A stretch of 64,000 bases of DNA from an uncultured Pseudohongiella sp. GTDB lineage: Bacteria > Pseudomonadota > Gammaproteobacteria > Pseudomonadales > Pseudohongiellaceae. Below, in pieces: positions 19,813 to 47,697 of the stretch (the stretch's first letter is position 1; every line of letters begins with the position of its first letter). Below the pieces are notes generated by a model. That model did no database searches and was not told where the DNA came from. It worked only from the letters and a program-made list of their open reading frames with translations. Position numbers and translations under genes: made by a program. The stretch spans positions 99,493 to 163,492 of the forward strand of contig CAZHUJ010000002.1 in assembly GCA_964535565.1 (NCBI GenBank), in the 5' to 3' direction.

Positions 19813-21510
19813 GTGACTGATCTGCTCAGGGTCTGCCACTTCTATCATGCTTTGCCAAAACGCAACACCCACGTTATTGGCTTGATAAGTCTTCTTTGCG
19901 TTTTTTTGTTTGCTGCCTGTTCACCATCAGCGCCAGGCGGTGTGGGTGACAATCAACCTCCTGCAGATCCTGGAACACCGGTATACGGTGGTCACCTGCG
20001 TGTTGCCCTGGAAGGGGAGACCAACAACTGGCTCCCGGGCCGAGGTAACCATGTTGCACCTGCCGCGCTGACGGTAGCAATGGCACTGTTTGATCCACTG
20101 GTGCGCCTGGATCATGAAGGCCGTTTTCAACCCTACCTGGCGGAATCCCTGGTTCCCAACAAAACCTTTGACCAGTGGACCGTGACCCTGCGCCCCGGGG
20201 TGAAATTCCACGACGGCACAGCCCTTGATGCGCAAGCCATAAAATGGAATTTTGATAACCTGCATAAACGTCAGGGCTCGGTCACCTTTGGTTCCATCCG
20301 CGATATAGAACGGGTTGAGGTTGTGGACGAACTGCGCGTGGTTTATTACCTGAGCAAAGGCATTGTTCCATTCCCCGATATTCTGACGCGTGCCCCGGGC
20401 TGGCCGGTATCCCCCACGGCTGTGCAGCGCTACGGCGACGAGGCCGGGCTGTACCCGGTGGGTACAGGGCCTTTTCAGCTAGTGAGCTGGCGGCGTGATG
20501 ATCGCCTGGAGTTGCGTCGAAATGAAAACTACTGGCGCGAAGGGTTGCCCTATCTGGACGCCATTACCTTCCGTCCGTTGCCCGATGAAGATGCGCGTCT
20601 GGCCAGTCTGATTTCCGGAGACATCGATGTTATTCAGACGCTGCGCCAGCACATTGTGGCCCGTCTTCGCAGTATGTCCGGTATCCATCTTTATGAACAA
20701 ATCGGCAACAGTTCAGGTAGTGCAATTTTTAACGCCCAGCGTGCGCCGGTTGATGATGCGCGTGTGCGCCGGGCACTGGCCTATGCCCTGGATCAGGAAG
20801 CCTTGATTGAAGTGCTCGGCGGTCGCGGAATTTCACCGGTGCAGACCCAGTACTTCAACGAAACCAGTATCTGGTATTCGCCCAAGGCGGCTGCCGCCTG
20901 GCCTGCTCGTGATCAGGCTCAGGCCAGGGCGTTGCTGCAGGAGTACATAAACGACCCCCAACGTTCTGACGGACGTGCGCCAGGCTCTGCGGTGGCAATA
21001 GAGCTGCTGTGTCTGCCCGAACAAAGTCTGATTGATCTGGCACAGATGTATCAGGCGTTGTGGGTAGCAGTCGGTTTTGATGTGCGCCTGCGCCAGGTGG
21101 AGCAGGCCACCCAAATCCAGAGTGTGATCAGTGGCGACTACATGGTGACCTGCTGGCGCAGCAGCAACGAGCAGGATCCTTACATTATTTTCAGCAATGA
21201 CTTTGGTGATCCTGCTCTGCAACCGCTGAATTACACCAACTTTGCGCATCCGCTGATTAGCCAGAACGTTGAAGTGTTACAGCTGGTACCTGAGTTCGAA
21301 CAACGTTATGCCGCAGTAGAAAATATCCTGATGTTGCTGGCCGAGCAGGTGCCCAATACCTGGACCGGCTCTACTCCCTCGGCGGTGGCTGCCAATCCCA
21401 AAGTGCGCAATCTGCGCGACTGGACCTTTCCTGATGGCCGCCTGGGTGACGGCATGCCGGTTGCACAGGTGAGCTGGGCGCAGGTCTGGATCCGTAACGA
21501 GGAGGATTAA
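19813..21510 (+). CDS. ABC transporter substrate-binding lipoprotein, family 5 (peptide/nickel, DppA/OppA-like)
   Basis: Lipobox LFAAC, size and position upstream of DppBCDF-like genes. The true start may be TTG at 19852, giving (M)PKRNTHVIGLISLLCVFLFAAC. Confidence 0.85.
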   Translation: MTDLLRVCHFYHALPKRNTHVIGLISLLCVFLFAACSPSAPGGVGDNQPPADPGTPVYGGHLRVALEGETNNWLPGRGNHVAPAALTVAMALFDPLVRLDHEGRFQPYLAESLVPNKTFDQWTVTLRPGVKFHDGTALDAQAIKWNFDNLHKRQGSVTFGSIRDIERVEVVDELRVVYYLSKGIVPFPDILTRAPGWPVSPTAVQRYGDEAGLYPVGTGPFQLVSWRRDDRLELRRNENYWREGLPYLDAITFRPLPDEDARLASLISGDIDVIQTLRQHIVARLRSMSGIHLYEQIGNSSGSAIFNAQRAPVDDARVRRALAYALDQEALIEVLGGRGISPVQTQYFNETSIWYSPKAAAAWPARDQAQARALLQEYINDPQRSDGRAPGSAVAIELLCLPEQSLIDLAQMYQALWVAVGFDVRLRQVEQATQIQSVISGDYMVTCWRSSNEQDPYIIFSNDFGDPALQPLNYTNFAHPLISQNVEVLQLVPEFEQRYAAVENILMLLAEQVPNTWTGSTPSAVAANPKVRNLRDWTFPDGRLGDGMPVAQVSWAQVWIRNEED

Positions 21511-21515
21511 CCACA

Positions 21516-22463
21516 GTGAAACTGCTGCTTAAAAAGCTGCCCTGGTTGATTGGCACGCTGCTGGCGGTTTCCTTTTTTACTTTTATGCTGGTCAGTCTGC
21601 TGCCTGGAGATCCGGCGGTACTGATTCTGGGGGCGGGTGGGGTCTCACCCGAAGCCGTTGCCGCCCTGCGTGAAGAGCTGGGGCTGGACCGTCCTCTGCT
21701 GGTGCGATATCTCGACTGGCTCGGCAGTGCGCTGACCGGCGACCTGGGGCGGTCACCGATGACCGGGCAGGCGGTGATGGATGCCATCCTCGCGCGTCTG
21801 CCAGTAACGGTGCAGCTGGGGCTGATGGCAATTGTGATTGCTCTGGCGCTGGCCGTGCCGCTGGCAATGCTGTCAGCGTTTTACGCCGGTTCTCGCCTGG
21901 ATCGCACGATCAGTGGTGTCGGGTTTGCGCTGATGTCAGTGCCCGGTTTTATGATGGCCATTTTCCTGATCCTGATTTTTGCAGTAAATCTGGGTTGGTT
22001 TCCAGCCACTGGCTGGATTCCATTTTCAGTGTCACCTGGCGCTAACCTGCGCAGTGCGCTGTTGCCAGCGCTGTCACTGGCGATGATAGAACTCGCTTTG
22101 TATATGCGACTGCTGCGCACCGATCTGATAGCCACCTTGCAGCAGGACTTCATCACACTGGCGCGCGCCAAAGGGCTGCCAAGCTGGCGCATCATGACCC
22201 GCCATGCCTTAAAACCTTCATCGTTTTCATTGCTCACCGTTGTTGGATTGCAGCTGGGTGGAGTGATTAGCGGGGCTATTATTGTTGAGGAAATTTTTGC
22301 ACTGCCAGGTCTTGGCAGACTTTTGTATCAGTCGATTTTGCAGCGTGATCTGCTGATGGTGCAGGGCATTGTGCTGTTTATTGCTACCGCTTATGTGCTG
22401 GTAAATTTCCTGGTTGATCTTTGTTACTCACTGATTGACCCACGTGTCCGTTATTCGGATTGA
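21516..22463 (+). CDS. ABC transporter permease (DppB/OppB-like)
   Basis: Six hydrophobic segments, a BPD-type permease EAA-like region (LARAKGLPSWRIMTRHALKP) and the typical N-terminus LLKKLPWLIGTLLAVSFFTF. Confidence 0.9.
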   Translation: MKLLLKKLPWLIGTLLAVSFFTFMLVSLLPGDPAVLILGAGGVSPEAVAALREELGLDRPLLVRYLDWLGSALTGDLGRSPMTGQAVMDAILARLPVTVQLGLMAIVIALALAVPLAMLSAFYAGSRLDRTISGVGFALMSVPGFMMAIFLILIFAVNLGWFPATGWIPFSVSPGANLRSALLPALSLAMIELALYMRLLRTDLIATLQQDFITLARAKGLPSWRIMTRHALKPSSFSLLTVVGLQLGGVISGAIIVEEIFALPGLGRLLYQSILQRDLLMVQGIVLFIATAYVLVNFLVDLCYSLIDPRVRYSD

Positions 22464-22472
22464 GCCTGACTT

Positions 22473-23381
22473 ATGACTGTGCCTGCTGAAAAGCTGCAAG
22501 CCAAAGCACATCGCCGCATCGAAAGCCGGGTGCAAAACTATGCCCGCGCCGTGCAGCAGGTATTTGGTCGTGGTTTTGGTCCTGGATTCTGGTTGTCTGT
22601 GGGCTGGTTGCTGCTGGTGTTGTTCTGTGCGCTGTTTGCAAACTGGCTGCCAGTGCGTGACCCACTCGACCCTGTTATTGCCAATCGCCTGAATGGCCCG
22701 CTGACCACCAATATTCTGGGTGCTGACGGACTTGGTCGCGACATTCTTGCGCGTCTGGTGCATGGCGCCAGGGTGTCAGTTGTTATTGGTTTAACCGCAG
22801 TGTCCATCGGGATGGTGATCGGTGGCACGGTGGGTATTCTGGCCGGTTATTTTCGCGGCCATTTTGAGCGCGCAGTCATGGCGGTGCTGGACATTATTCT
22901 GGCCTTCCCCTGGCTGGTTCTGTTACTGGCATTGGTGACTTTTGTTGGCCAGAGCCTGAGCGCCATTTCCGTGGCAATAGGATTTTTGTGGATTCCGGCT
23001 TACGCCCGCGTTGCTCGCGCCAATACTCTGTCGGTTGTGCAGCGCGAATATGTACTGGCCGCGAAGGCCATGGGCGCAAGCACCACACGTATCCTGCTGC
23101 GCGAAGTCCTGCCCAATGTGATTCTGCCGGTTCTGGCCTATGGTCTGGTAGCAATGGGGCTGGTGATTATTGTGGAAAGTGCACTGGCCTTCCTTGGGCT
23201 CAGTGTAGAGGCGCCGCAACCCACCTGGGGCGGCATGATTGCTGAGGGCAAACGCCATCTGGCTACTGCAGTACATGTGGCACTGATGCCTTCATTGACG
23301 ATGTTCTTGACCGTGTTGTCGCTTAACTTTGTGGGGGACAGGCTGCGCAGTCATTTTGATGTCAAGGAGTCAAATCTGTGA
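22473..23381 (+). CDS. ABC transporter permease (DppC/OppC-like)
   Basis: ILGADGLGRDILARLVHG motif typical of DppC/OppC, and a permease EAA region (AAKAMGASTTRILLREVLPN). Confidence 0.9.
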   Translation: MTVPAEKLQAKAHRRIESRVQNYARAVQQVFGRGFGPGFWLSVGWLLLVLFCALFANWLPVRDPLDPVIANRLNGPLTTNILGADGLGRDILARLVHGARVSVVIGLTAVSIGMVIGGTVGILAGYFRGHFERAVMAVLDIILAFPWLVLLLALVTFVGQSLSAISVAIGFLWIPAYARVARANTLSVVQREYVLAAKAMGASTTRILLREVLPNVILPVLAYGLVAMGLVIIVESALAFLGLSVEAPQPTWGGMIAEGKRHLATAVHVALMPSLTMFLTVLSLNFVGDRLRSHFDVKESNL

Positions 23382-24382
23382 GCACTGCGATGCTTGAAGT
23401 TCAGAATCTGACCGTGCGCCTGAAAAGCCAGGCTGGTCTTGTGCATGCGGTGGAGAATGTTTCGTTTACGCTTGAGGCCGGCAAGACCTTGGGCATCGTG
23501 GGTGAATCAGGGTCTGGCAAAAGTGTCACCGCCAGAGCATTGATGGGATTGTTGCCTCGCCTGGGCACTGCCGAAAAAAAAGGCGTAGTGTTGTTGGACG
23601 GGGAGAACATCATCGATTGGTCCGACAAAGTGATGCGCGCCTTGCGTGGACCCAAAATGGCGATGGTATTTCAGGACCCAATGACCGCGCTGAACCCTGT
23701 GCTCAAACTGGGGGTACAACTGGCAGAACCTCTGCAGCTGCATTTGAACATGACTCGGCAACAGGCGCGCCAGCGCTGCATTGAGCTGCTGAGGGTTGTA
23801 GGTATCCCGGCGCCAGAACAGCGCATCGACCAATATCCACATCAGCTGTCCGGCGGCATGAGGCAGAGAGTTGTGATCGCAATTGCACTGGCCTGCAATC
23901 CTCAGTTACTGATTGCGGATGAACCTACAACTGCGCTGGATGTGACGGTACAAAAACAGATTCTGGATCTGTTGTCGTCGCTGCAGCAACAACGGCAGAT
24001 GGCGGTGCTGCTGATCAGCCATGACCTGGGAGTTGTTGGCAGTCGCGCGGATCACATTGCGGTTATGTACGCCGGCCGTATTGTTGAGCTGGCGCCGGCC
24101 AGAATCCTGTTTGAATCGATGTTGCATCCCTATACCGAGGCGCTGCTCAACTCCATCCCGCGCTTGAATGATCCGGCCCATACCCGACTTGCAGCAATTC
24201 CAGGGCGACCGCCACAGCTGATTAACCCGCCTGCAGCCTGTGCGTTTGCGCCGCGTTGTCCAAATGCGCAGCAAAAATGTCGGCGCGAGCAGCCGCCGAT
24301 GATCCCCGCGCGTGAGGCGGGTCATAGTTATGCCTGTTTTTTCCCGGTCGATCGCACGCAGGGAGGCCATGTTCATGGCTGA
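23378..24382 (+). CDS. ABC transporter ATP-binding protein (DppD/OppD-like)
   Basis: Walker A GESGSGKS, signature LSGGMRQR, Walker [13 protein letters not shown] and a C-terminal Cys-rich oligopeptide-type extension. Confidence 0.9.
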
Positions 24383-25346
24383 AGGCCGCGAGATAGTGCT
24401 CAGTGTGCAGCATCTGAGTGTTAGTTTTAATACCGACAAAGGTGTAGTGCAGGCTGTGTCTGATGTCAGTTTTGATGTGGCGCGCGGTGAAACCCTGGGG
24501 TTGGTGGGGGAGTCTGGTTGCGGGAAGTCCACTATCGGGCGCGCAATCATGCAGCTGCCGCCGCCTACAGGGGGCAGCGTGGTATTCAAGGACCAGGATT
24601 TGACAACATTGTCAGGTGAGGCACTGCGTCAGACGCGTACCGGTTTACAAATGATTTTTCAGGATCCGGTGTCCTCGTTAAATCCTCGTCGCAAGGTGCG
24701 CGATATTATTGCTGAGGGTTTGCATATCTGGAAACGACCCGATGCTGAGGCTCGTGTGCGTGAGGTGATGGATGCGGTGGGTCTGGATCCCGATGCAGCG
24801 GCAGACCGTCGCCCGCACCAGTTTTCCGGTGGGCAGTGCCAGCGCATCTGTATTGCGCGCTCGCTGGCGCTGGATCCAGCCGTGCTGATCTGTGATGAGC
24901 CGGTGTCAGCGCTGGACGTGTCTGTGCAGGCCCAGATTCTCAATTTGCTGGAAGATATGAAACAGCGTTACCAGCTGACGATGATTTTTGTGGCCCATAA
25001 TCTGGCCGTCGTCAAAAACGTCAGTGATCGTGTGGCTGTTATGTATCTGGGAAAACTTTGCGAGATAGGTGCCGTTGAGCGTATTTACTCGCATCCTGCC
25101 CATCCTTATACCCGTGCCTTGCTGGCTTCAATTCCTGATATTGAAAATGCCTACACTGGCAACAGCGAAGTGATGTTGCCGGGCGAGTTGCCATCTCCGG
25201 TGAATCCGCCTTCAGGCTGCCGCTTCCGTACCCGTTGCCCATCTGCCACAGATCGTTGTGCCAGCGAGGAACCTTTGATGCGGGCAGTGACTGACAGCGC
25301 CGGTGTTGATCATTTTGTTGCCTGTCACTACCCGCGGCTGGACTGA
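24375..25346 (+). CDS. ABC transporter ATP-binding protein (DppF/OppF-like)
   Basis: Walker A GESGCGKST, signature FSGGQCQR, Walker B LICDEPVSALD. I prefer the ATG at 24375 (GGGAGG 9 nt upstream) over the ORF-track start at 24312. Confidence 0.9.
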   Translation: MAEGREIVLSVQHLSVSFNTDKGVVQAVSDVSFDVARGETLGLVGESGCGKSTIGRAIMQLPPPTGGSVVFKDQDLTTLSGEALRQTRTGLQMIFQDPVSSLNPRRKVRDIIAEGLHIWKRPDAEARVREVMDAVGLDPDAAADRRPHQFSGGQCQRICIARSLALDPAVLICDEPVSALDVSVQAQILNLLEDMKQRYQLTMIFVAHNLAVVKNVSDRVAVMYLGKLCEIGAVERIYSHPAHPYTRALLASIPDIENAYTGNSEVMLPGELPSPVNPPSGCRFRTRCPSATDRCASEEPLMRAVTDSAGVDHFVACHYPRLD

Positions 25347-25369: not shown

Positions 25370-25873
25370 TCAGCGGGCAGGCGAAACCGGCCGGAAACTT
25401 TCAGGATTGATCAGGCGGTAATCGGGCACCACAATGTGTTCAATTTCTTCCACGACGCGAATGGTCGATGGCTGTTTTGCATCCGCTCCCGCTGCAAACA
25501 CAAACTGTCCCGACATCATCTTGTTGACCCGATCCACGGCACCCCAGTCCACGGTGTACCAGTCTGAAGCCGGAAGTTCCGGCAGCGACCAGATAAAAAC
25601 ACGGTCTGGCGTTGGGTCGTAGCGGAAGTTGATGTTCACCACTTTTTCATCCGCAGTTTTAACCACCAGTTTCAGCAGTCTGACGTGATCGGTAAAACGT
25701 AGCAGCAAATTGTCTGGAGCAGTGGGCAATACCTCGTCGTGATCAGGCATGTGTTCAACCTGTACGTCTCCGGTGTAACGGTAGGTATGCGACGAGTGCT
25801 GGGCGTAGGCGGAAGAACTGCAAGCCCACAACAACACCAAAATCGCTGTCAGCACGTTGTATTTATTGTTCAT
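25370..25873 (-). CDS. Periplasmic CopC-domain-like protein (tentative)
   Basis: The internal start MNNKYNVLTAILVLLWACSSSAYA gives a signal peptide. The pattern APDNLLLRFTDHV...YTVDWGAVD...MSGQFVFAAG resembles the CopC/YobA beta-sandwich. It is divergent, and the mature N-terminus is not the canonical His. Confidence 0.45.
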   Translation of the reverse strand: MNNKYNVLTAILVLLWACSSSAYAQHSSHTYRYTGDVQVEHMPDHDEVLPTAPDNLLLRFTDHVRLLKLVVKTADEKVVNINFRYDPTPDRVFIWSLPELPASDWYTVDWGAVDRVNKMMSGQFVFAAGADAKQPSTIRVVEEIEHIVVPDYRLINPESFRPVSPAR

Positions 25874-26092
25874 GTCAGGCCGGGTCCCTGGGCGTTTTAC
25901 ATGACTCCATTTATAACATGGGTCCATTATTTCAGCAGGAATAAGGCTGACGAATTTTGAACTGAGACAGCTGTTTTTGAAGAATTCGTCAGTGTTTTAA
26001 ATAAATCAGCAAGACGCTGTTGCTGGATCGTGTTCCAATGGCTTCGCTGCATAGTAGTTCCAGAACAGAAACAATAACGAAGGAGGTGTCCC

Positions 26093-27658
26093 GTGAGGAT
26101 ACTGCAATCCCCTATGCGCTCCACCACCCGCAAGGGTGTACAGAGGGTGTCTGCTCCGATTTGGGCAGCCCGTCTTCTTGCTGCCATGGCAATGACGTTA
26201 CCACTGGGTGTTTCTGCCCAGAGCAGTGGTTCAGACGTCACGTTCCATAAAGACATTGAACCTATCCTTCAGCGTGCATGTCAGCACTGCCATCGTCCCA
26301 ACGGGGTCGCTCCAATGTCCCTGGTCTCATACGACGATGTAGTCCCTTACGCAGGTTTGGTCGAATATCGTACCCATCTGCGTGATCGTGCAGGCGCGAT
26401 GCCGCCGTGGTATGCCGAAAAGGATATTGGTATCCAGTCCTACAAACAGGACCCGTCACTGACTGATCTGGAGCTGGCAAAAATTTCTGCCTGGGCGCGC
26501 GGTGGTGTGCCCAAGGGAAATCCGGCTGATGCTCCGCAACCTCTGGTATTTGATGACCGTGGTGTATGGACCGCGGGCGAGCCGGATATGGTGATCCGCA
26601 CCGAAGATATTTTTGTGGAAGGCGGTGCACCGGATTGGTGGGGAGATATTCCCAGCATTCCTACCGGTCTGACGCAGGATCGCTATGTAAAATCGGTCGA
26701 GATTCGTGAGGTTAACGACCGTGACATGAGTGCTGCCGGCGGTACCGTCGGTGGACGTAACATTGTTCACCATATGATCTGGAGTACCCAGGTTTTTAAC
26801 GAAGACGGAAGCTCGGATGGTATTCAGGTGCCTTGGCCGGTACACGAAATTGCCCGTAACCCGGATATTTTTGATGAAGACTCCGGTCGCCTGCTGCGTG
26901 CCAACTCCTACCTGGTGTCCAACTCCGTGCATTTGCACTCCACCGGAGTGGATACCACCGGACACCTGGAAATCGGTTTCCGCTTCCACCCGGAAGGTTA
27001 CAAACCCAAGTATCCGCCGTCATTTATCGGTCTTGGTAACGGTGTGGATATCTCCATTGCCGGTAACCAGGACAAGCAGGAATTGCATGCTTATGCCGTG
27101 CTGGATCAACCCACCAAGATTGTAACCTTCGAGCCACACTTGCACGCCCCTGGCGAGCGTATGTGTCTGGAAGCGATCTGGGGTTATACCGTCGAAACGC
27201 TGTCCTGCGTGGGTTACGACCACAACTGGGTACGCGGATACACCTTTGAGGCAGACTCTGCGCCGCTGCTGCCAAAAGGCACTGTGCTGCATATTGTGGG
27301 CTACATGAACAACACCGATACCAACCCGAACGTGCCGGATTCGCGTAACTGGCAAGGTTCAGGTAACCGTTCGGTCACCAATATGTTTATCGACCTCGGC
27401 ATGCGGGTCACCATGACTGACGACCAGTTCCTGGACGAGATGACCCAGCGTCGCAAGGATCTGAATCTCGGACCCAACGATCACGTGATCGGATGTCCGC
27501 TGTGTCTGGCACCTCTGGTTGCGCCTATCGAACCTACTGAGGAAGAGAAAAAGGATATGTCAGAGGCGATGATTCGTTACCTGACGCTTACGGATGAGGA
27601 GAAGCAGCGTCTTGGCCTCAGTAACAATGTGATGCTGAGCCAGACGGAGGGTAACTGA
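26093..27658 (+). CDS. Exported fusion protein: N-terminal c-type heme (CXXCH) domain plus a copper type II ascorbate-dependent monooxygenase (PHM/DBH)-like domain
   Basis: GTG start 6 nt after AGGAGG, followed by a signal peptide. Motifs in PHM order: FHKDIEPILQRACQHCH (CXXCH at nt 26279-26293), VHHM (H226, H227), VHLH, PHLH (H349, H351) and TNMF (M431). Confidence 0.6.
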   Translation: MRILQSPMRSTTRKGVQRVSAPIWAARLLAAMAMTLPLGVSAQSSGSDVTFHKDIEPILQRACQHCHRPNGVAPMSLVSYDDVVPYAGLVEYRTHLRDRAGAMPPWYAEKDIGIQSYKQDPSLTDLELAKISAWARGGVPKGNPADAPQPLVFDDRGVWTAGEPDMVIRTEDIFVEGGAPDWWGDIPSIPTGLTQDRYVKSVEIREVNDRDMSAAGGTVGGRNIVHHMIWSTQVFNEDGSSDGIQVPWPVHEIARNPDIFDEDSGRLLRANSYLVSNSVHLHSTGVDTTGHLEIGFRFHPEGYKPKYPPSFIGLGNGVDISIAGNQDKQELHAYAVLDQPTKIVTFEPHLHAPGERMCLEAIWGYTVETLSCVGYDHNWVRGYTFEADSAPLLPKGTVLHIVGYMNNTDTNPNVPDSRNWQGSGNRSVTNMFIDLGMRVTMTDDQFLDEMTQRRKDLNLGPNDHVIGCPLCLAPLVAPIEPTEEEKKDMSEAMIRYLTLTDEEKQRLGLSNNVMLSQTEGN

Positions 27659-28617
27659 TGTTTGCAGGAGCTTTTAGTAGACGTTTAAACGTGGCCGCAG
27701 CGGCGGTACTGGGTTTGGGCCTGCTCTGCAGCGGAATGTCAGTGCAGGCGCAGACCTACAGCAGTGGTCAGCACATTGAGCCCGCGTACGAAGGCTGGCG
27801 TCAGAATGAAGATGGTTCCTACAACTTCATTTTTGGTTACCACAATGAAAACTGGCAGGAAGAACTCGATATCCCGGTGGGAGAAAATAATTTTTTCTCT
27901 CCTGGCGATGCCGATCGTGGCCAGCCCACACACTTTCTGCCGCGTCGTAACCGCTTCACCTTTGAAGTCACGGTCCCAGCCGATTGGGGCGAAAAAGAGT
28001 TGGCATGGACGATAACGGCTCACGGTGTCACACGCACCGCGTACGCTACTCTGGCCAAGGACTATGTGGTGGATAACGTGGTCATTGCCTCTGAAACCGG
28101 ATCGTTGGGGGCCGGTACCAGTACGCCTGAATCGCGTGCCAACACAGCGCCAGTGATCAACTTGCTGGGTGATAACGTGCGTAGTGTGCGTGTGGGTGAA
28201 CCGCTGCTGTTAAGAGCTGAAGTCAGGGACGACGGTCTGCCGAAACCGGGCAGTGCTGCAGCTGCGGCTGAAGGCCGCGAAGTGACGCGAACAGCTCCGG
28301 GTGAAGTGCGCCGATTTATGCGTGCACCCACACGGGTCACAGTAGGTAAAACCAACGGTTTGTTCCTGTCATGGAACGTTTACCGTGGTGACGCCAACGC
28401 GGAATTTTATCCGCCGCAGGTCAAACCATGGGAAGACACCCGTGCCAGCGCCAACTCACCTTGGGGTGCTTACTGGACACCTCCGCCCATTCCGGAAGAC
28501 GGAATCTACGAAACCCAGGTAACGTTTGATAGACCTGGCACGTTTATATTGTGGGCGCGAGCCGATGATGGGGGACTTTATGGTGACTATTACGTCACTG
28601 TAAATGTGACTGAGTAA
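27658..28617 (+). CDS. Hypothetical exported protein (319 aa), translationally coupled to the upstream gene
   Basis: Signal peptide AAAAVLGLGLLCSGMSVQA-QT. The ATG overlaps the upstream TGA by 1 nt. No family recognised. Confidence 0.6.
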   Translation: MFAGAFSRRLNVAAAAVLGLGLLCSGMSVQAQTYSSGQHIEPAYEGWRQNEDGSYNFIFGYHNENWQEELDIPVGENNFFSPGDADRGQPTHFLPRRNRFTFEVTVPADWGEKELAWTITAHGVTRTAYATLAKDYVVDNVVIASETGSLGAGTSTPESRANTAPVINLLGDNVRSVRVGEPLLLRAEVRDDGLPKPGSAAAAAEGREVTRTAPGEVRRFMRAPTRVTVGKTNGLFLSWNVYRGDANAEFYPPQVKPWEDTRASANSPWGAYWTPPPIPEDGIYETQVTFDRPGTFILWARADDGGLYGDYYVTVNVTE

Positions 28618-28803: not shown

Positions 28804-29907
28804 ATGACCTGGATTCATTCCGCCACCAGCTTTCTGGCCATTTCGCAGCTGCTGTTTCTTGCAAGTCTTTACCTGGTCTATTTCCCCGGCCGCCGTCTGG
28901 CGCGGCTGATCACACTTTTTTGTTTATGTGTCACGGCCTATATTCTTTCACGCCAGCCTGCGCTGCGCGGTCTGCCGGTGGCTGAGTTGCTGGGTTTGAT
29001 GGCGATTGCTGCGCCCGCTGTATTGTGGGTGATTGGCCGTTATCTGTTTGAAGATGAGCGTCGGGTGCATCCGCTGGCCTGGATTCTGATCATTTCTTAT
29101 ATGAGCCTGCGTTTTGCCGGCCAGCTTTTGTATGACGTGGGACCTGCGCGTACATCGCTACCCTTTATCGTGCTGTTTTTTGTGCCTCAGCTGATCATGC
29201 TGGGGTTGGCCTGTCACGTGGTGTACATGGCCTGTCGTGGGCACGAATCCGATCTGGTCGAATTAAGACGTCAATTGCGGGTTCCGTTTGCGATTGGAAT
29301 GGGCAGCATTGTGGGTCTTATCATTGGCGCCGGGTTTTTCTGGGACGGCAGCTGGCAAACCGACAGCCTGTATTTTTCGCTGATATTTCTGCTGATCCTG
29401 TTTATTAATCTGGGCATGTTCCGGATTCATCAGCATGCTCCCGATTTGATCCACAGTGTCGGCGAGCAGCCCGGTCCGTTGCATATGGCAAATGTTCCCA
29501 TGGCCTCTGATACCGCGGGTGTCACTGATGCGGAAATGTCAACGGCGCAGGTGTCCCGTCATGACCAGATCATGATAGACCGGGTGCTCAAGGCGATGAA
29601 GCAGGGACGTCTGTATGCAGAGTCCGGTCTGACTATCGGAGATCTGGCGGCACGGGTCTCAGTGCAAGAGTACCGCCTGCGTAAACTGATCAACCAGTCC
29701 TTGCATTACCGCAACTTCAACCAGTTTTTAAACCGATACCGCATCGAGGAGGCCGCACGCCGCCTGCTGGATCCGGAAGAGCAGCATATTCCGATCTCCA
29801 GTATTGCGCTGGATGTGGGTTATGCATCGTTGTCTTCGTTTAATAAAGCGTTTAAGGAAATCCATGGTGTAACACCGTCGGTTTACCGTTCGGGACAGGC
29901 GGAGTAA
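28804..29907 (+). CDS. Membrane-anchored AraC/XylS family transcriptional regulator
   Basis: The N-terminal ~190 aa has about six hydrophobic helices. The C-terminal AraC HTH reads IALDVGYASLSSFNKAFKEIHGVTPSVYR. Confidence 0.8.
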   Translation: MTWIHSATSFLAISQLLFLASLYLVYFPGRRLARLITLFCLCVTAYILSRQPALRGLPVAELLGLMAIAAPAVLWVIGRYLFEDERRVHPLAWILIISYMSLRFAGQLLYDVGPARTSLPFIVLFFVPQLIMLGLACHVVYMACRGHESDLVELRRQLRVPFAIGMGSIVGLIIGAGFFWDGSWQTDSLYFSLIFLLILFINLGMFRIHQHAPDLIHSVGEQPGPLHMANVPMASDTAGVTDAEMSTAQVSRHDQIMIDRVLKAMKQGRLYAESGLTIGDLAARVSVQEYRLRKLINQSLHYRNFNQFLNRYRIEEAARRLLDPEEQHIPISSIALDVGYASLSSFNKAFKEIHGVTPSVYRSGQAE

Positions 29908-29974: not shown

Positions 29975-31006
29975 GTGGACACCATGAACGACACTACTGT
30001 TAGCAGCAATGCCCTGTTGATGGACGATACCCCGGCCATCAAATCCTTTCGCCGCCTGGCCATTATTACTATCTGTGCGGTGTATTTCCTGATTCTGGTT
30101 GGTGCTACCGTACGTGCCTCAGGTGCAGGTATGGGTTGCCCGGACTGGCCAACCTGTTTTGGCAGTCTGATCCCACCCGTGAGCGAATCGCAGCTGCCGC
30201 CCAATTATCAGGAAATTTATGCAGATCGCGGCTACGCCGAAACCCGCTTTAATGTGGTAAAAACCTGGACCGAATATGTGAACCGTCTGGTGGGTGTCAC
30301 CATCGGTCTGTTGATTATGGCGACGGCCTGGCGCTCGTTGACGGTACGTCGCTACGACCGCCGCATCATGATTGCTTCACTGGCAGCGCTGGCGATGGTG
30401 ATTTATCAGGGTTGGCTCGGCTCGCAAGTGGTAGCATCCAACCTGCAGCCGGGCATGATTACGGTACATATGTTGATGGCGCTGGCCATTGTAGCCACGC
30501 TGTTGTATGCACTGGCACGCGCCCGTCGCCATGTGATGGCGCAGACCTCAGTGGCGGGCATAGATCCGCGCTTTCGCAAGTGGTTGTACATCGTAATGGC
30601 GCTGACGCTGGTGCAGATCACCATGGGTATACAGATCCGTGAGCTGATGGACTACCTGGCACACACAGTGGGTGCGGAGCGTGAAGTGTGGATTGAGGCA
30701 CAGAACTGGGTGTTCTACGTCCACCGTTCGTTCTCGTCGGTAGTGCTGTTTTCCAATGTCTGGCTGGTATGGATGCTGTGGCAGTCGCTGGGTATAAAAC
30801 ACAGCCTGACGCGGCTTGCAGCCGGGGTTCTGGCCGTGATCGCAGTTGCAATTTTGTCCGGTGCAACACTGGGACATCTGGGTATGCCGTGGTTTGTGCA
30901 GCCCACACACTTGCTGTGTGCCTCGCTGATATTCGGGCTGCAGTTCCTGCTGTGGATGGACTACCGGCATGCGACGGGTGGTTCTGCTGCGCCGGCCGCT
31001 GCCTAA
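29975..31006 (+). CDS. ctaA: Heme A synthase (COX15/CtaA family)
   Basis: GAGMGCPDWPTCFG motif, eight hydrophobic segments and conserved His-containing helices. The start may be the ATG at 29984. Confidence 0.85.
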   Translation: MDTMNDTTVSSNALLMDDTPAIKSFRRLAIITICAVYFLILVGATVRASGAGMGCPDWPTCFGSLIPPVSESQLPPNYQEIYADRGYAETRFNVVKTWTEYVNRLVGVTIGLLIMATAWRSLTVRRYDRRIMIASLAALAMVIYQGWLGSQVVASNLQPGMITVHMLMALAIVATLLYALARARRHVMAQTSVAGIDPRFRKWLYIVMALTLVQITMGIQIRELMDYLAHTVGAEREVWIEAQNWVFYVHRSFSSVVLFSNVWLVWMLWQSLGIKHSLTRLAAGVLAVIAVAILSGATLGHLGMPWFVQPTHLLCASLIFGLQFLLWMDYRHATGGSAAPAAA

Positions 31007-31265: not shown

Positions 31266-32081
31266 TCAGTCTTTGACGAATTTCAGGGTCATGCGGTCAC
31301 TCTCACCAATCTCCATCAGCCTTGGTCGGTCAGCATCACTGACGCCACGCAATGTCGGCGGCAGGTTCCATACACCACCTGGATGATTTTTGGGGTCGCG
31401 TGGATTGGCGTTAATCTCTGAACTGCCGGCAAAGCTGAAGCCGTTGGCGGTCATCAGGTCGATCAGCGTTTTTTCGTGGATATAACCATTGCCCGGAACC
31501 GCAGCCTGATCCGCGGGCCAGCGGTGATCAACAATGCCTACAACACCGCCCGATTTCAGCGCGGCGTGCCAGGCCTTGACGATGTTATCGGCACCCATAG
31601 CCAGCCAGTTGTGGGCATTACGGAAGTCCAGGATTACGTCAACGCTGCCGGGTTCGGCGATGCGGGATTGCGCTTGTGTCAGTTGTTCTGACAGAACAAT
31701 GTCGCCGTACAGGGATGGGTTGCTGTTGACCAGAGCCATGAAGCTGTCATTGGAACCTTTCATCCAGCCTTGCAGCGGCGTGTCACTGCGGTCATACAGC
31801 GCGGCGATCAGAGTGCCATTTTCCTTCAGGTAGGGAGCCAGGATTTCGGTGTACCAGCCACCACCGGGCCAGGTCTCCACAACTACATCGTCCGCTTCTA
31901 CCCCAAAAAAGCTCAGTGTTTCATAAGGGTGACGGTAAACATCCCGCGCTGAATTGGCTTCAGAACGATGAGGGCTGTTAATTGCCGTTCGCAGTGCCGC
32001 GTTCTCCTGCGCTGCCAGTGGGCTGGCCATCAGCAGGCCCGCGATCAGCGTCAGAACAGAGGTTTTCACAAAAGGTTTCAT
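31266..32081 (-). CDS. Exported class I SAM-dependent methyltransferase-like protein (COG4798 type)
   Basis: The internal start MKPFVKTSVLTLIAGLLMASPLAA at 32081 follows GGAG. A methyltransferase-fold region GGWYTEILAPYL is present. The upstream 38 codons of the ORF-track call look non-coding. Confidence 0.65.
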   Translation of the reverse strand: MKPFVKTSVLTLIAGLLMASPLAAQENAALRTAINSPHRSEANSARDVYRHPYETLSFFGVEADDVVVETWPGGGWYTEILAPYLKENGTLIAALYDRSDTPLQGWMKGSNDSFMALVNSNPSLYGDIVLSEQLTQAQSRIAEPGSVDVILDFRNAHNWLAMGADNIVKAWHAALKSGGVVGIVDHRWPADQAAVPGNGYIHEKTLIDLMTANGFSFAGSSEINANPRDPKNHPGGVWNLPPTLRGVSDADRPRLMEIGESDRMTLKFVKD

Positions 32082-32258
32082 AAAGGACTCCGCCTGTTTT
32101 TTGTTGTTGGTATCAGATATTTCACGCTGCAAACAACCTGCGTCTGCGGCCGAGAATACCGGTTTGTCGAACAACAGACCAGTGAGCTGCGGCATTTCTC
32201 ACAAGCGCCACTCACGGTATGATGCGGTGAAATTCATGCGCTTATACAGGGACCCATC

Positions 32259-33113
32259 ATGAGTGCTTCTGATGCAGCAAGTGTAAATCCGTTGATCTCG
32301 GTTGATGAGTTACAACAGCGACTGTATTCGCAGGATCTGTTGCTGATAGACACCCGCTTTAAACTGGAAGATCCGGGCTACGGCCGCAGCGTCTACACAC
32401 AGTCGCATTTGCCGCTGGCGGTTTATCTGGATCTGGATGACGATTTGTCATCGGCAGTCATCCCGGGCGAGACCGGACGCCATCCGTTGCCGGATCCGGA
32501 TGTGCTGGAGGCGCGGCTGCGCCGTTTGGGATTACATGCCAAAGACCATGTGGTGATTTATGACGATGGCCCCGGCTTTTTTGCAGCACGGCTGTGGTGG
32601 CTGTTGCACTGGCTGGGCCATAAAAAAGTATCGGTGCTTGATGGTGGTCTGGCCGCCTGGACCAAGGCGGGTTTGCCTATGTCAGACCAGGTCAATTTCC
32701 GCCTCTGGCCAGGTACCTTTGTAGCCCATTTACAACCGGGTATGTTGGCAACTGCTCCCGAGCTGCTGGCAGGCAAGGATCTGCAGTTGCTGGACGCGCG
32801 TGCTCCGGAACGTTTCCGTGGTGAAATGGAGCCAATTGATCCGGTCGCAGGGCATATCCCCGGTGCCATATGCCTGCCTTGTGCCGCCAATCTTGGAAGT
32901 GACGGTCTATGGTTGTCTGCGGCACAGCTACGCGAACGTTTCCCTGCTCTGGCGCCAGGACATATCCGTGTCTGCTACTGCGGCTCCGGTGTCACAGCTT
33001 GCCATAACATCCTGGCGGCCGTGGTCGCTGGTTTGCCTATGCCCAGACTTTATGCAGGATCCTGGAGCGAGTGGATCACGGACCCCATGCGCCCTGTGGC
33101 CACAGGTGCTTGA
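32259..33113 (+). CDS. sseA: 3-mercaptopyruvate/thiosulfate sulfurtransferase (tandem rhodanese)
   Basis: Active-site loop YCGSGVTACH and two rhodanese halves; 284 aa. Confidence 0.8.
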   Translation: MSASDAASVNPLISVDELQQRLYSQDLLLIDTRFKLEDPGYGRSVYTQSHLPLAVYLDLDDDLSSAVIPGETGRHPLPDPDVLEARLRRLGLHAKDHVVIYDDGPGFFAARLWWLLHWLGHKKVSVLDGGLAAWTKAGLPMSDQVNFRLWPGTFVAHLQPGMLATAPELLAGKDLQLLDARAPERFRGEMEPIDPVAGHIPGAICLPCAANLGSDGLWLSAAQLRERFPALAPGHIRVCYCGSGVTACHNILAAVVAGLPMPRLYAGSWSEWITDPMRPVATGA

Positions 33114-34054
33114 TCAAGACTATAGAGCTGCTGATGCAGAGCCTTCATGGAATCTTTGACGTAGTCCATGAAGGCGCGCATTACCGGTGTCGGGTGCTTG
33201 CCGTTGGGATACACGATGCACCATGAACGCCGTAGTGGAAATCCTTCCAGGGCTGGTGCCACCAACTGACCGAGCCTGAGTTCTGCGCTGATGCTGAGTC
33301 TGGGCAACACTGCTCGTCCAAGGCCTGCCACCACCGCGTGTTTGATTGCTGCGTTTGAACCCAGCTCCAGTCGGGCCTTGAGCGTCAGCTGATGACGTGT
33401 ACACCAGTTTTCCAGTGCCTGACGGGTGCCTGAGCCGCGCTCGCGCAGTAACAGTCCATCTTCCAGAAACCGGCGTGTATTGATGTCACCCTGCTGCAGC
33501 AGCGGGTCATTGGCATTAACCACCGGCACCAGCAGATTGTCCAGAAACGGCAGGATATTCAGTGAGCGCGATTCCGGCACCATGCCCATGATGATGAGGT
33601 CGTCATGGTTCTCGGTCAGCCGTTGCAGGGCCTGGGCACGGCTGAACACCTGCATTTGTACCTGCACCTGTGGGAACAGCTGCAAAAAACCGCTGAGCAT
33701 ATAAGGCACAATAGTTTGTGCAGTGCTGACGGCTGACAGGCGAAGTTCGCCGCGAATCTGACCCTGCAGCGTTGCCAGATCCATCTGGAAACGTTCCAGG
33801 TCTTCAAAGATAGAGGCCACGTGGCGAGCAAGCTGTTCACCTGCCGCCGTCACATACAGTTTTTTGCCTACATACTCAAACAGTGGCAGGCCAATGACTT
33901 GCTCCAACTGACGGATCTGGGCGCTGACAGCCGGTTGTGTCAGCGCAAGTTCTTCCGCTGCACGGCTGTAACCCTGGCGCTGATAGACCGCATAAAACAC
34001 CTGCAGCTGGCGAAAAGACAAGCGGCTAAGCAATTGGGCGAGAGTGTAGGACAT
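33050..34054 (-). CDS. LysR-family transcriptional regulator, divergent from pycAB (PycR-like)
   Basis: N-terminal wHTH FRQLQVFYAVYQRQGYSRAAEELALTQPAVSAQIRQLE. Its divergent position beside the two-subunit pyruvate carboxylase matches P. aeruginosa pycR. Confidence 0.8.
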   Translation of the reverse strand: MSYTLAQLLSRLSFRQLQVFYAVYQRQGYSRAAEELALTQPAVSAQIRQLEQVIGLPLFEYVGKKLYVTAAGEQLARHVASIFEDLERFQMDLATLQGQIRGELRLSAVSTAQTIVPYMLSGFLQLFPQVQVQMQVFSRAQALQRLTENHDDLIIMGMVPESRSLNILPFLDNLLVPVVNANDPLLQQGDINTRRFLEDGLLLRERGSGTRQALENWCTRHQLTLKARLELGSNAAIKHAVVAGLGRAVLPRLSISAELRLGQLVAPALEGFPLRRSWCIVYPNGKHPTPVMRAFMDYVKDSMKALHQQLYSLDQAPVATGRMGSVIHSLQDPA

Positions 34055-34146: not shown

Positions 34147-34210
34147 TTTGGGTTGAGTTGTAATAGTTTATGCGCCCGTTACAAATGCTCTCTCCGACGG
34201 AGAACCTTTG

Positions 34211-35626: not shown

Positions 35627-35653
35627 CCGGACGCGAATAGAGGACCCTATTAA

Positions 35654-37450: not shown

Positions 37451-37470
37451 CAAACCCGGCTCAGCCTGAA

Positions 37471-37497
37471 CTGTACGCATGACTTTCATGCGTACAG
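37471..37497. other. Perfect 12 bp palindrome between pycB and the malic enzyme gene (attenuator, terminator or operator)
   Basis: CTGTACGCATGA-ctt-TCATGCGTACAG, with no U-tract following. Confidence 0.4.
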
Positions 37498-37575
37498 AGC
37501 TGCCCCTCGTTGCTCACAACAGGTTCTGCCGCTACTCTGTGGCCATTGACTCCACCTGTTTTGCTCGAGAGCTCC

Positions 37576-46476: not shown

Positions 46477-47697
<1,221 letters not shown>

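Follow-up and report, generated by a model that had tools for sequence, protein, structure and literature searches.

A c-type heme motif joined to a PHM/DBH-like fold in an exported Pseudohongiella protein with a paired partner gene

An exported protein encoded by an uncultured Pseudohongiella, a marine bacterium, and called CytPHM here, carries a heme c attachment motif ahead of a core that consists of two beta-sandwich subdomains of the PHM/DBH fold. The copper ligands of PHM are in register in this core and, like the heme motif, are conserved throughout the family. The loading of CytPHM with copper and heme is inferred, as is a chemistry of O2 activation and C-H hydroxylation like that of the PHM/DBH superfamily, whose members bind two copper ions about 11 A apart. 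The window (the whole stretch of DNA analysed, 64,000 nt) contains no paralog of the CytPHM gene or of its partner gene elsewhere. The gene and its export signal are placed as follows.

26093 to 27658, + strand: gene for the heme-c/PHM-like dicopper protein CytPHM, 521 aa (ORF list, translation)
26080 to 26086, + strand: Shine-Dalgarno sequence AAGGAGG, 7 nt before the GTG start codon (read from the sequence)
26093 to 26218, + strand: signal peptide, residues 1-42, with predicted cleavage at VSA/QS (translation, by inspection)

The N-terminal sequences of CytPHM homologs differ, yet all finish with A-x-A or AQ-type sites. Sec-type signals are present on both CytPHM (by inspection) and the partner protein. 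Promoter and terminator scans around the CytPHM module gave results that were not better than shuffled controls.

The copper domain is described by two subdomains and six predicted ligand positions, whose conservation was counted in an HMM alignment of 272 full-length CytPHM relatives.

26570 to 26992, + strand: PHM-like N-terminal beta-sandwich subdomain, approximately residues 160-300, with the CuH-type site (AF2 strands, Foldseek, hhalign)
26768 to 26773, + strand: H226-H227, matching PHM H107-H108 (CuH); kept in 271/272 and 272/272 relatives (hhalign and DBH profile match)
26930 to 26932, + strand: H280, matching PHM H172, the third CuH ligand; kept in 271/272 (hhalign and DBH profile match)
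27050 to 27427, + strand: PHM-like C-terminal beta-sandwich subdomain, approximately residues 320-445, with the CuM-type site (Foldseek, hhalign)
27137 to 27145, + strand: H349-L-H351, matching PHM H242-T-H244 (CuM); kept in 271/272 and 270/272 (hhalign and DBH profile match)
27383 to 27385, + strand: M431, matching PHM M314, the CuM thioether ligand; kept in 269/272 (alignment, hhalign)

Comparison of the AF2 model of CytPHM with the PDB using Foldseek returned only DBH (4zel) or PHM (1phm, 1sdw and others) at ranks 1 to 31, with E values from 9e-9 to 2e-5, a probability of 1.0 and a target TM of about 0.5, DBH being the best match. The model has a mean pLDDT of 59, with the strands of the N subdomain at about 70-90 and the C subdomain at about 40-75. 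The pLDDT is below 50 in the heme domain and around M431, and neither the convergence of the ligands in three dimensions nor the heme-copper distance can be derived from the model. The register of the ligands comes from an hhalign comparison of 21 diverse family domains with rat PHM (E 6.7e-5, 230 columns, probability 63.6%), in which six of the six copper ligands are paired as listed above. Additionally, the full-length profile of the CytPHM family matches DBH (E 0.039) with HH, H and HxH in line. When a family profile of the domain alone was run against PDB sequences (HMM versus sequence), neither PHM nor DBH was recovered; the link needed profile-versus-sequence hhalign, the full-length profile and the fold search.

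Pfam models detect the copper domain only at the margins of the family. CytPHM itself has no match to PF01082 or PF03712 at E<=10, and direct sequence searches of Pfam, NCBIfam and the PDB returned weak cytochrome matches only. Among 27 diverse family members, six match Cu2_monoox_C and four match Cu2_monooxygen. Two relatives exceed the 23-bit cutoff of PF03712 (Cu2_monoox_C), P0153 with 24.8 bits and P0175 with 23.6 bits, and the best score of PF01082 (Cu2_monooxygen) in the relatives is 17 bits versus a cutoff of 30. Since CytPHM is below Pfam detection and only its relatives reach it, membership of the superfamily is based on remote, transitive homology. The bacterial multidomain proteins P0262 and P0215 combine AhpC/TSA or EF-hand domains with cytochrome c and Cu2_monoox domains. 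They contain the CytPHM-type unit of a cytochrome c and a PHM-like domain but differ in their added redoxin, thioredoxin or EF-hand domains and tandem duplications, and they are likewise unstudied. These proteins indicate that the architecture recurs and grades into forms that Pfam can detect.

The CXXCH motif, an M-P-P motif and the six copper ligands are each kept in 269-272 of the 272 relatives (>=99%), a conservation far beyond chance. In a copper-domain alignment of 21 sequences with 26-58% identity to CytPHM, the six ligands are the sole invariant His or Met residues. It could be argued that the beta-sandwich is a non-catalytic binding module, of a fold common to PNGase F and carbohydrate-binding modules, and that CytPHM is merely an electron-transfer cytochrome. 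PNGase F does appear further down the Foldseek list (E about 2e-4), and CytPHM lacks a significant match to a Pfam copper domain. However, the six PHM/DBH copper-binding positions are the only invariant His/Met residues (>=269/272) across subfamilies that are about 30% identical, and a module that binds no metal would not keep six ligands. This explanation is considered very unlikely.

An earlier sequence-only reading of this DNA had proposed that a c-type heme domain and a PHM/DBH-like dicopper domain are fused in one exported protein, and this central claim is supported. The ORF that it gave, with a signal peptide, is confirmed exactly, and its residue numbers for VHHM (H226, H227), PH349LH351 and NM431F are correct, as is its VHLH motif, which contains H280. 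Its assignment of H226, H227 and VHLH (H280) to CuH and of H349, H351 and M431 to CuM is supported by four independent lines: hhalign, the DBH profile match, the fold search and conservation. It had named an HMM search with PF01082/PF03712 and a structure prediction as ways to check the claim; the first fails for CytPHM itself and passes only for Cu2_monoox_C in two distant relatives, and the second gives the PHM/DBH fold with modest model confidence.

CytPHM resembles PHM (the catalytic core of PAM; 1PHM/1SDW; PF01082 + PF03712) in its fold of two beta-sandwiches, its six copper ligands in register, its extracytoplasmic location and the motif around the CuM methionine, where the family consensus RSVDEM parallels the TSSDEM of PHM. 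It differs in having only about 11% sequence identity to PHM, an N-terminally fused heme-c domain that PHM lacks, an obligate partner protein, a bacterial origin and an extra conserved histidine, H282 (the second His of VHLH), which is kept in 261/272 relatives and has no counterpart in PHM. The two proteins also differ at the substrate site. R240 of PHM binds the carboxylate of the peptidyl-glycine (PMC12164859), and N316 and Y318 are known to bind it as well. In the hhalign alignment R240 is replaced by E347, N316 by I433 and Y318 by L435, and the position of R240 is occupied by E or Q in 263/272 relatives. The lack of conservation of these residues argues that CytPHM is not a peptide amidase, and its identification as PHM proper (EC 1.14.17.3) was rejected as all three are replaced. 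A glycine-extended peptide that binds as it does in PHM is not the substrate, which is unknown.

Similarity extends to DBH (4ZEL), tyramine beta-monooxygenase and MOXD1. DBH is the top fold match (E 9e-9), its HH/H/HxH ligands align, and like CytPHM it has an additional N-terminal domain before the catalytic core. In DBH, however, the extra domain is a DOMON domain and not a covalent heme-c cytochrome, and DBH also possesses a dimerisation domain and uses ascorbate. DBH is not known to have a partner resembling that of CytPHM. CytPHM is best described as a known kind of enzyme in an uncharacterised form with a tethered heme, within a family that is large and apparently unstudied. There are at least 4898 homologs and 587 representative clusters at E<1e-30, and several paralogs are found per genome. 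The relatives are all named 'hypothetical' or 'cytochrome c family' in databases, and the literature searched, the scope of which excluded most subscription journals, yielded no study of a PHM/DBH-like enzyme fused to heme c in bacteria.

The N-terminal part of the mature protein has the features expected of a mono-heme c-type cytochrome.

26234 to 26512, + strand: mono-heme c-type cytochrome domain, approximately residues 48-140, helical (sub-threshold Pfam, family profile, AF2 model)
26279 to 26293, + strand: CXXCH heme-attachment motif C63-Q-H-C66-H67, the sole CXXCH; kept in 271/272 relatives (translation)
26399 to 26407, + strand: M103-P104-P105, with the candidate distal (sixth) heme ligand Met; kept in 272/272

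C63-Q-H-C66-H67 lies after a Sec-type signal, so that the criterion for a c-type cytochrome of a CXXCH in an exported protein is satisfied. M103 lies C-terminal to this motif in the context A-M103-P-P-W and is kept in 272/272 relatives; M75 is kept in 269/272. M103 is a possible axial ligand of the heme, with M75 as an alternative, and both assignments are inferred; the heme domain is modelled as helices with low confidence (pLDDT <50). The Pfam cytochrome models do not reach their gathering scores with CytPHM: Cytochrome_CBB3 scores 17.4 bits versus 27 (E 0.006), and Haem_bd scores 12.5 bits against 27. The weak match to Cytochrome_CBB3 recurs in 26 of 27 diverse family members, and every Pfam cytochrome match is below the gathering score. 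With the family profile, PccH (4rlr) is matched at E 0.005 and hydrazine synthase alpha, in its heme domain, at E 0.007.

The PccH-type and Haem_bd-type mono-heme cytochromes (PF22297, PF14376; PDB 4RLR) and the C-terminal heme domain of hydrazine synthase alpha (5C2V) share with CytPHM the motif x-V-T-F-x-K-D-I-x-P-I-L-x-x-x-C-x-x-C-H. However, no more than about 25 residues align, and these heme domains are either stand-alone or parts of enzymes unrelated to CytPHM. The single CXXCH (CQHCH, nt 26279-26293) followed by MPPW, as described in the sequence-only reading, is confirmed, but its label of a 'Planctomycete-type' (PSCyt) cytochrome was not confirmed. No PSCyt model of Pfam is among the matches of CytPHM at E<=10 or among those of 27 relatives at E<=1; sub-threshold Cytochrome_CBB3, Haem_bd and PccH come closest.

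The reading that is preferred, with moderate confidence, is that CytPHM is a periplasmic heme c-CuH-CuM monooxygenase that works with a partner and uses respiratory electrons; its chemistry, electron direction and complex formation are all inferred. CytPHM would be built of an N-terminal mono-heme c domain, a short linker and the PHM/DBH-like core of two subdomains. A respiratory carrier (soluble cytochrome c or the bc1 complex) would reduce the heme in the periplasm, and the heme would hand single electrons to CuH (H226, H227, H280), a role played by ascorbate in the animal enzymes. CuM (H349, H351, M431) would bind O2, with which it would hydroxylate one C-H bond in a substrate arriving in the periplasm. 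The partner may bind or present the substrate, or may stabilise the enzyme, and would probably be in a complex with CytPHM. In the order of the domains, the heme domain is adjacent to the subdomain that bears CuH. Ascorbate is inferred to be an unlikely reductant in the bacterial periplasm, and the fused heme c together with the periplasmic location suggests that another electron donor may be used. The idea that a built-in heme replaces ascorbate as donor had already been put forward in the earlier reading and is still an inference; the direction in which electrons flow cannot be read from the sequence.

A fused cytochrome c is also carried by the three-domain copper nitrite reductases. These share with CytPHM the design of a mono-heme c domain on a periplasmic copper enzyme, through which electrons of the respiratory chain may be received without a diffusible donor, a resemblance that is a functional analogy only. 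They differ in their cupredoxin copper fold and in the reduction of nitrite, both of which are unrelated to CytPHM.

Electrons could instead flow in reverse, with the copper domain acting as an oxidase or dehydrogenase on a periplasmic substrate and the heme c feeding the respiratory chain. Periplasmic enzymes that carry a fused cytochrome c are in many cases dehydrogenases that donate electrons, and quinohemoprotein dehydrogenases, SorAB and flavocytochromes c are arranged in this manner. The direction of flow is not set by sequence alone, and respiratory-biogenesis genes lie beside the module in some genomes (SURF1 in 16 loci, CtaA in 6). However, the full PHM/DBH ligand set is retained, including the CuM methionine. 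In the characterised PHM/DBH family this ligand set activates O2 and consumes electrons, and to our knowledge no dehydrogenase has the PHM/DBH fold. Reverse flow is thus regarded as unlikely.

The monooxygenase reading includes a second protein, encoded immediately downstream.

27658 to 28617, + strand: partner gene for a 319-aa exported Ig-like beta-sandwich protein (TGATG overlap with CytPHM, GGAGG upstream)

The TGATG overlap joins the stop of CytPHM to the start of the partner, indicating translational coupling. The partner belongs to no Pfam or NCBIfam family, and its model (pLDDT 59) has only generic fold matches (Ig-like, S-layer or adhesin), so that no function can be assigned. Gene neighbourhoods were counted in 82 CytPHM loci found with a narrower family alignment, which does not represent the whole family. 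The partner adjoins the CytPHM gene in 74 of these, nearly always directly downstream, and is also adjacent in subfamily members that are about 40% identical; two of these come from assemblies with Acidobacteriota names, Bryobacteraceae and Terriglobales. In some proteins the partner is fused to the enzyme, at the C terminus in P0163 and P0147 and at the N terminus in P0157 and P0158. The partner family is large as well, with at least 5587 matches at E<=0.001, and it is also represented in Pseudohongiella nitratireducens. The pairing of the genes and the fusions are firmly established; adjacency together with fusions at either end indicates that the functional unit is a two-protein module. A physical complex of the two proteins is likely but is inferred. 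The earlier reading had missed both the partner gene (27658-28617) and a CopC-fold neighbour, and the functional unit therefore exceeds the CytPHM ORF.

The pairing might also mean that the partner is the target, such that CytPHM is a protein-modifying enzyme that matures the partner by hydroxylating or oxidising one of its residues, in analogy to MbnH and its target MbnP, and has no part in small-molecule catabolism. Strict pairing, fusions in both orders and the lack of any other conserved pathway gene in the loci are consistent with this, and PHM itself uses peptides. However, an enzyme covalently fused to its own single-turnover substrate would be unusual, the peptide-binding residues of PHM are missing, and no motif for a cofactor or metal ligand is obvious in the partner (H92 of its GQPTHF motif is not conserved). 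This alternative is unlikely.

The surroundings of the module include three further genes.

25370 to 25927, - strand: exported CopC-fold protein, divergent (Pfam CopC, PF04234, 30.4 bits versus a cutoff of 23.3)
28804 to 29907, + strand: AraC-family regulator, a possible local regulator (Pfam HTH_18; beside the module in 13/82 loci)
29975 to 31006, + strand: CtaA/COX15 heme A synthase (Pfam; adjacent only in the 6 closest loci, a weak association)

CopC-fold genes lie near the module in 29/82 loci, frequently two in one locus. The product of 25370-25927 scores 14 bits with the NCBIfam CopC equivalog, against a cutoff of 95, and 42 aligned CopC-fold neighbours have no His or Met conserved at >=80%; an A-Q-H at the signal cleavage site occurs in one subgroup only. 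A role for these neighbours as proven copper chaperones is unsupported, since the canonical copper ligands are not conserved. SURF1 is directly upstream on the same strand in 16 of the 82 loci. SURF1, DUF6644-like membrane proteins, a thioesterase, a nitroreductase and an unknown exported 288-aa protein are each recurrent in 13-17 loci. All of these are in Pseudohongiella-type genomes, and it is possible that they reflect synteny only. De novo clustering of the neighbours in the 82 loci revealed no further universally conserved gene and no conserved catabolic gene pointing to a substrate. The distant acidobacterial loci have other neighbours, namely TonB-dependent-type OMPs, a cyclase, a phosphotriesterase and a PQQ protein. 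An Opp/Dpp peptide ABC transporter is encoded upstream of the module, and a link to it appeared attractive at first because PHM acts on peptides. A functional link was rejected, as the transporter is adjacent in 2-3 of the 82 loci, all from near-identical genomes, and CytPHM lacks the residues with which PHM binds peptides.

The subfamily to which the protein of the window belongs has one more motif.

27482 to 27505, + strand: H464-x3-C468-P-L-C471, followed by an acidic tail; subfamily-specific (alignment of homologs)

This motif is invariant among 35 close homologs and missing from approximately half of the wider family; it may be a disulfide or an additional Cu(I) site. The C-terminal CxxC and the neighbours (CopC-fold in 29/82 loci, SURF1 in 16, CtaA in 6 including the window) speak for a role of CytPHM in copper handling or oxidase biogenesis. 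Under this explanation CytPHM would not be a monooxygenase, and its heme would drive the reduction of Cu(II) to Cu(I), or copper transfer, for cytochrome oxidase assembly or copper homeostasis. However, the CopC-fold, SURF1 and CtaA neighbours are limited to Pseudohongiellaceae-type genomes, where they may reflect shared ancestry only, and the acidobacterial loci have quite different ones. The CopC-fold proteins are without canonical copper ligands, and several paralogs per genome are hard to square with an assembly factor. A copper-handling role is very unlikely. The number of paralogs, the AraC neighbours and the TonB-dependent-type OMPs of an acidobacterial locus fit a catabolic enzyme that has diversified in substrate.

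The textbook examples of 'non-coupled binuclear copper' monooxygenases are PHM and DBH, which depend on ascorbate and are known essentially from eukaryotes alone. The electron path between their copper sites is still disputed. A bolder reading, considered somewhat less likely than not, is that CytPHM founds an unrecognised class of two-subunit periplasmic monooxygenases. These would consist of a heme c-CuH-CuM enzyme and an Ig-like partner and would draw electrons from the respiratory chain via a built-in cytochrome in place of ascorbate or NAD(P)H. Pseudohongiellaceae, Gemmatimonadota and Acidobacteriota of oceans and soils would each have several paralogs in a genome and would use them to hydroxylate organic compounds that get into the periplasm and are otherwise unreactive. 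A large bacterial family that combines the PHM/DBH copper sites with a covalently tethered heme-c donor would provide a soluble, ascorbate-independent model in which the entry of electrons could be triggered and followed optically via the heme, as well as a new route by which the respiratory chain can drive copper chemistry that activates O2. It would also offer an initial idea of the function of thousands of genes named 'hypothetical protein' or 'cytochrome c family' and for the similarly large partner family. Both families are common in marine and soil metagenomes, and the expansion of paralogs in Pseudohongiella suggests that they may have a role in the breakdown of diverse organic matter.

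The exported, putative heme-copper protein is encoded by the first gene of a two-gene module:

26093-27658 (+): enzyme gene, 521 codons, GTG start 7 nt after AAGGAGG
enzyme residues 1-42 (+): Sec-type signal identified by inspection, cleavage between VSA and QS
26279-26293 (+): single CXXCH of the enzyme, C63-Q-H-C-H67, in the context T-F-H-K-D-I-E-P-I-L-Q-R-A-C-Q-H-C-H, followed by A-M103-P-P-W
27658-28617 (+): partner gene, 319-aa exported protein, start inside the enzyme stop codon (TGATG), GGAGG 8 nt upstream

The start of the enzyme agrees with that of its homologs, and both proteins carry export signals. Beyond the heme motif the enzyme contains VHHM (H226, H227), VH280LH, PH349LH351 and NM431F. 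A sequence-only reading had placed the ORF, the CXXCH and the VHHM, VHLH, PHLH and NMF motifs accurately, and its interpretation of an exported c-type heme domain fused to a dicopper domain is supported here except for the type of cytochrome. The functional unit it proposed was too small, the partner gene having been overlooked.

The heme motifs are strongly conserved among enzyme relatives aligned by HMM, with C63/C66/H67 present in 271 of 272, M103-P-P in 272 of 272 and M75 in 269 of 272. Pfam matches to the domain are all below threshold (Cytochrome_CBB3, 17.4 bits vs 27, plus Haem_bd and PccH), and a weak cytochrome match recurs in 26 of 27 diverse relatives. Two other heme proteins are recovered with the family profile, Geobacter PccH at its start (4rlr, E 0.005) and hydrazine synthase alpha at its C-terminal heme domain (5c2v, E 0.007); both matches run through the motif V-T-F-x-K-D-I-x-P-I-L-x-x-x-C-x-x-C-H. 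The domain is most likely a mono-heme His/Met cytochrome c, with M103 or M75 as the inferred axial Met. Models of the Planctomycete cytochrome type (PSCyt) do not match it, leaving the earlier "Planctomycete-type" label unconfirmed; the exported c-type heme domain itself is supported.

Peptidylglycine alpha-hydroxylating monooxygenase (PHM), dopamine beta-hydroxylase (DBH) and TBM are well-known non-coupled binuclear copper monooxygenases. The window protein has no direct copper-monooxygenase match in Pfam, NCBIfam or PDB sequences, and the Pfam models Cu2_monooxygen and Cu2_monoox_C do not detect it. Among 27 diverse family members, however, Cu2_monoox_C is matched in 6 and Cu2_monooxygen in 4, and two distant relatives, P0153 with 24.8 bits and P0175 with 23.6, pass the Cu2_monoox_C gathering score of 23 bits. 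When an AlphaFold2 model of the window protein built from 35 homologs (mean pLDDT 59, pTM 0.59, N-terminal beta-sandwich ~70-90) was compared with the PDB by Foldseek, human DBH (4zel) and rat PHM structures occupied ranks 1-31 (E 9e-9 to 2e-5, probability 1.0, ~305-330 aligned columns, target TM ~0.5). Lower matches were unrelated or shared the same general fold, e.g. PNGase F.

The copper domain (residues 150-462 of the window protein) was aligned across 21 relatives that share 26-58% identity with that protein, and the alignment was compared by hhalign with the rat PHM core, whose sequence had been checked against 1SDW (E 6.7e-5, probability 63.6%, 230 aligned columns). The register pairs H226, H227 and H280 with the PHM ligands H107, H108 and H172 at CuH, the electron-transfer copper site, and M228 with M109; at CuM, the O2-activating site, H349, H351 and M431 pair with H242, H244 and M314. 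The full-length family profile also matches DBH in the PDB (E 0.039) with the HH, H and HxH motifs aligned. These six ligand residues are the only invariant His and Met in the 21-member alignment and are kept in 269-272 of 272 full-length relatives. Around the Met, the consensus G-x-R-S-V-D-E-M of the family is similar to G-G-T-S-S-D-E-M of PHM. Fold, profile alignment, transitive Pfam matches and conservation together lead to the conclusion that this domain, although remote, is truly homologous to the PHM/DBH catalytic core and retains both copper sites. The PHM/DBH-like domain and ligand motifs proposed earlier are supported with respect to fold, register and conservation. Occupancy of the heme and copper sites is inferred, and convergence of the ligands in three dimensions is not established, the model being weak around H349-H351 and M431 (pLDDT ~40-60). 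That the domain is merely a non-catalytic binding module is considered less likely than the monooxygenase reading.

The enzyme is not a PHM orthologue because the residues that hold the glycine carboxylate are replaced in the hhalign register: R240, which has this role in PHM (PMC12164859), is E/Q347, and N316 and Y318, which also hold the carboxylate in PHM, are I433 and L435. H282 (26936-26938, in VHLH), two residues beyond the CuH ligand H280, is near-invariant (261 of 272 relatives) and lacks a PHM counterpart, PHM having QVHYGD there; it may alter the CuH site. The Cys pair C358-C372, kept in 257 of 272 relatives, is inferred to be a disulfide, which is likely. An H-x3-C-P-L-C motif (27482-27505, residues 464-471) and an acidic, Lys/Glu-rich tail (27527-27655) are confined to the window's subfamily, being invariant in 35 close homologs and missing from about half of the wider family. 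Two readings of the motif are possible, a disulfide and an additional CxxC that binds Cu(I).

At 74 of 82 loci the partner gene adjoins the enzyme gene, in almost every case no more than a few tens of bases downstream, and most exceptions are at contig ends. It has no Pfam or NCBIfam family, and its own family comprises at least 5587 matches at E<=0.001, including a "hypothetical protein" of cultured Pseudohongiella nitratireducens. In the distant subfamily, partners occupy the same position at loci L083 (34% identity, E 1e-43) and L085 (35% identity, E 7e-54; BLASTP); at L084 the position is held by a 295-aa gene without a Pfam match whose sequence was not compared and whose homology is not established. 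Second enzyme paralogs, 24-28% identical, at the gammaproteobacterial loci L058 and L040 each have their own partner copy. The partner is fused C-terminally to the enzyme in P0163 and P0147 (33% identity across the whole partner, E 7e-40) and N-terminally in P0157 and P0158 (32% identity, E 8e-38). This strict adjacency and fusion in both orders, which are shown, are a classic indication that two proteins form a physical and functional complex; the complex itself is inferred and the partner's role is unassigned. In the partner's AlphaFold2 model (pLDDT 59) several Ig-like beta-sandwiches follow one another, their fold matches are only generic (Ig, S-layer, adhesin), and no conserved metal-ligand motif is evident. 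That the partner is instead a protein substrate of the enzyme is judged less likely than the monooxygenase reading.

The best-supported reading, held with moderate confidence, is a periplasmic two-protein monooxygenase. Electrons of a periplasmic carrier would enter the heme c of the enzyme. The heme domain is joined through residues ~141-160 to the CuH-bearing subdomain and so should be able to deliver single electrons to CuH. At the CuM site (His2Met), O2 would be bound and the substrate hydroxylated, and the partner may add to substrate binding or stability. Both the chemistry and the direction of electron flow are inferred; the reverse flow, in which a dehydrogenase feeds the respiratory chain, is the less likely possibility.

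Other genes adjoin the module less consistently:

19813-25346 (+): complete Opp/Dpp-type peptide ABC transporter (SBP_bac_5, two permeases, two ATPases), directly upstream
25370-25927 (divergent from the enzyme): exported CopC-fold protein (Pfam 30.4 bits vs 23.3)
28804-29907: AraC-family regulator
29975-31006: CtaA

Of 82 loci, 29 have CopC-fold genes in the vicinity of the module, often two of them, and a chaperone role is merely suggestive because their canonical copper ligands are not conserved. An AraC-family regulator is found with the module at 13 of the 82 loci, CtaA at only 6. In another paralog group, a SURF1 gene (L055 6879-7670, L024 6971-7738 and 14 other loci, 16 in all) shares the strand of the enzyme gene and lies ~200 bp before it, after two DUF6644-like membrane genes. 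SURF1 and CtaA, the latter downstream in the window's group, are both heme-a/cytochrome oxidase biogenesis genes. Their link to the module is unexplained and may reflect synteny alone, and the AraC, CtaA and SURF1 associations are limited to closely related genomes. A role of the enzyme in copper handling or oxidase biogenesis is ranked below the monooxygenase reading. The transporter is next to the module at just 2-3 of 82 loci, those of the nearest genomes, and is probably coincidental. The three loci of the distant subfamily are surrounded by other genes: L083 (Bryobacteraceae) has a cyclase, a phosphotriesterase and outer-membrane proteins of the TonB-dependent type, whereas a PQQ beta-propeller, an aldo-keto reductase and a TetR regulator are the neighbours at L084 and L085 (metagenome assembly). 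Also recurrent in Pseudohongiella-type genomes is an exported 288-aa protein without a Pfam family (L038 4677-5543, -, and 12 other loci; motif DFNGVWQAIGSAHWDVEPH), whose gene lies ~2.2-3.3 kb upstream of the module. Both of the nearest genomes, L003 and L004, conserve at 77-83% identity a 309-aa ORF (31266-32195, -) without a Pfam or NCBIfam match.

The window comes from the chromosome of a Pseudohongiella-type gammaproteobacterium, with housekeeping genes (aconitase, fumarase, Opp, RF3, TGT, SecDF) on the flanks. Elsewhere in it are the following:

7340-8677 (+): strong match (E 1e-127), in a bacterium, to the MATCAP family (microtubule-associated tyrosine carboxypeptidase); an M48 peptidase (8690-9559) is next
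34208-39276 (+): biotin carboxylase, carboxyltransferase/biotin-carrier subunit (PYC_OADA, HMGL-like) and NAD-malic enzyme in series, possibly a two-subunit pyruvate carboxylase or oxaloacetate decarboxylase; a LysR regulator (33050-34054, -) adjoins
40397-44583 (+): DabB-like (Proton_antipo_M) and DabA pair, a likely inorganic-carbon uptake system; a LysR regulator (39331-40251, -) adjoins
56613-58193 (-): QTMAN_N (N-terminal domain of tRNA-queuosine alpha-mannosyltransferase, E 8e-58) plus glycosyltransferase domain; TGT is at 46570-47697

The enzyme family is large and unannotated. A 90%-clustered database contains more than 4898 homologs without a single precomputed Pfam domain, and every one goes under "hypothetical protein", "c-type cytochrome" or "mono/diheme cytochrome c family protein". 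Among 1.84 billion representatives, 587 clusters match at E<1e-30; the number rises to 5711 at E<1e-10, where the weaker matches may cover the cytochrome domain only. At least 576 loci were confirmed in GTDB contigs (one genome per species). The closest, L003 from a Pseudohongiella sp. MAG, shares 89% protein identity and gene order. Hosts include Pseudohongiellaceae, other Pseudomonadales and Gemmatimonadota (61-64% identity), and a second subfamily, ~40% identical, comes from metagenomes and from assemblies bearing the names Bryobacteraceae and Terriglobales (Acidobacteriota). The gene is multiplied in several genomes, to two, three or more paralogs that in some cases stand in tandem.

The fusion is not invisible to databases, since their models already catch a few distant relatives and multidomain architectures exist. 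P0215 (1064 aa) has two tandem cytochrome c + PHM-like units and EF-hand motifs, and P0262 (1251 aa) has AhpC/TSA and thioredoxin-like domains, cytochrome c and Cu2_monoox_C. Source names of enzyme and partner family members are all "hypothetical" or "cytochrome c family". The literature searched, which excluded most subscription journals, yielded no study of either protein, the heme-c-fused PHM/DBH-like enzyme of bacteria or its partner, so that prior work is possible. The copper core is shared with PHM and DBH; what is likely new is the combination, in bacteria, of a tethered heme c, inferred to be the electron donor, with an obligate second subunit, the substrate being unidentified. For a copper-enzyme specialist, a heme-wired, ascorbate-independent bacterial relative of PHM and DBH would be surprising and experimentally attractive, its function and substrate being as yet unproven, and its appeal also comes from the thousands of family members and the obligate uncharacterised partner.
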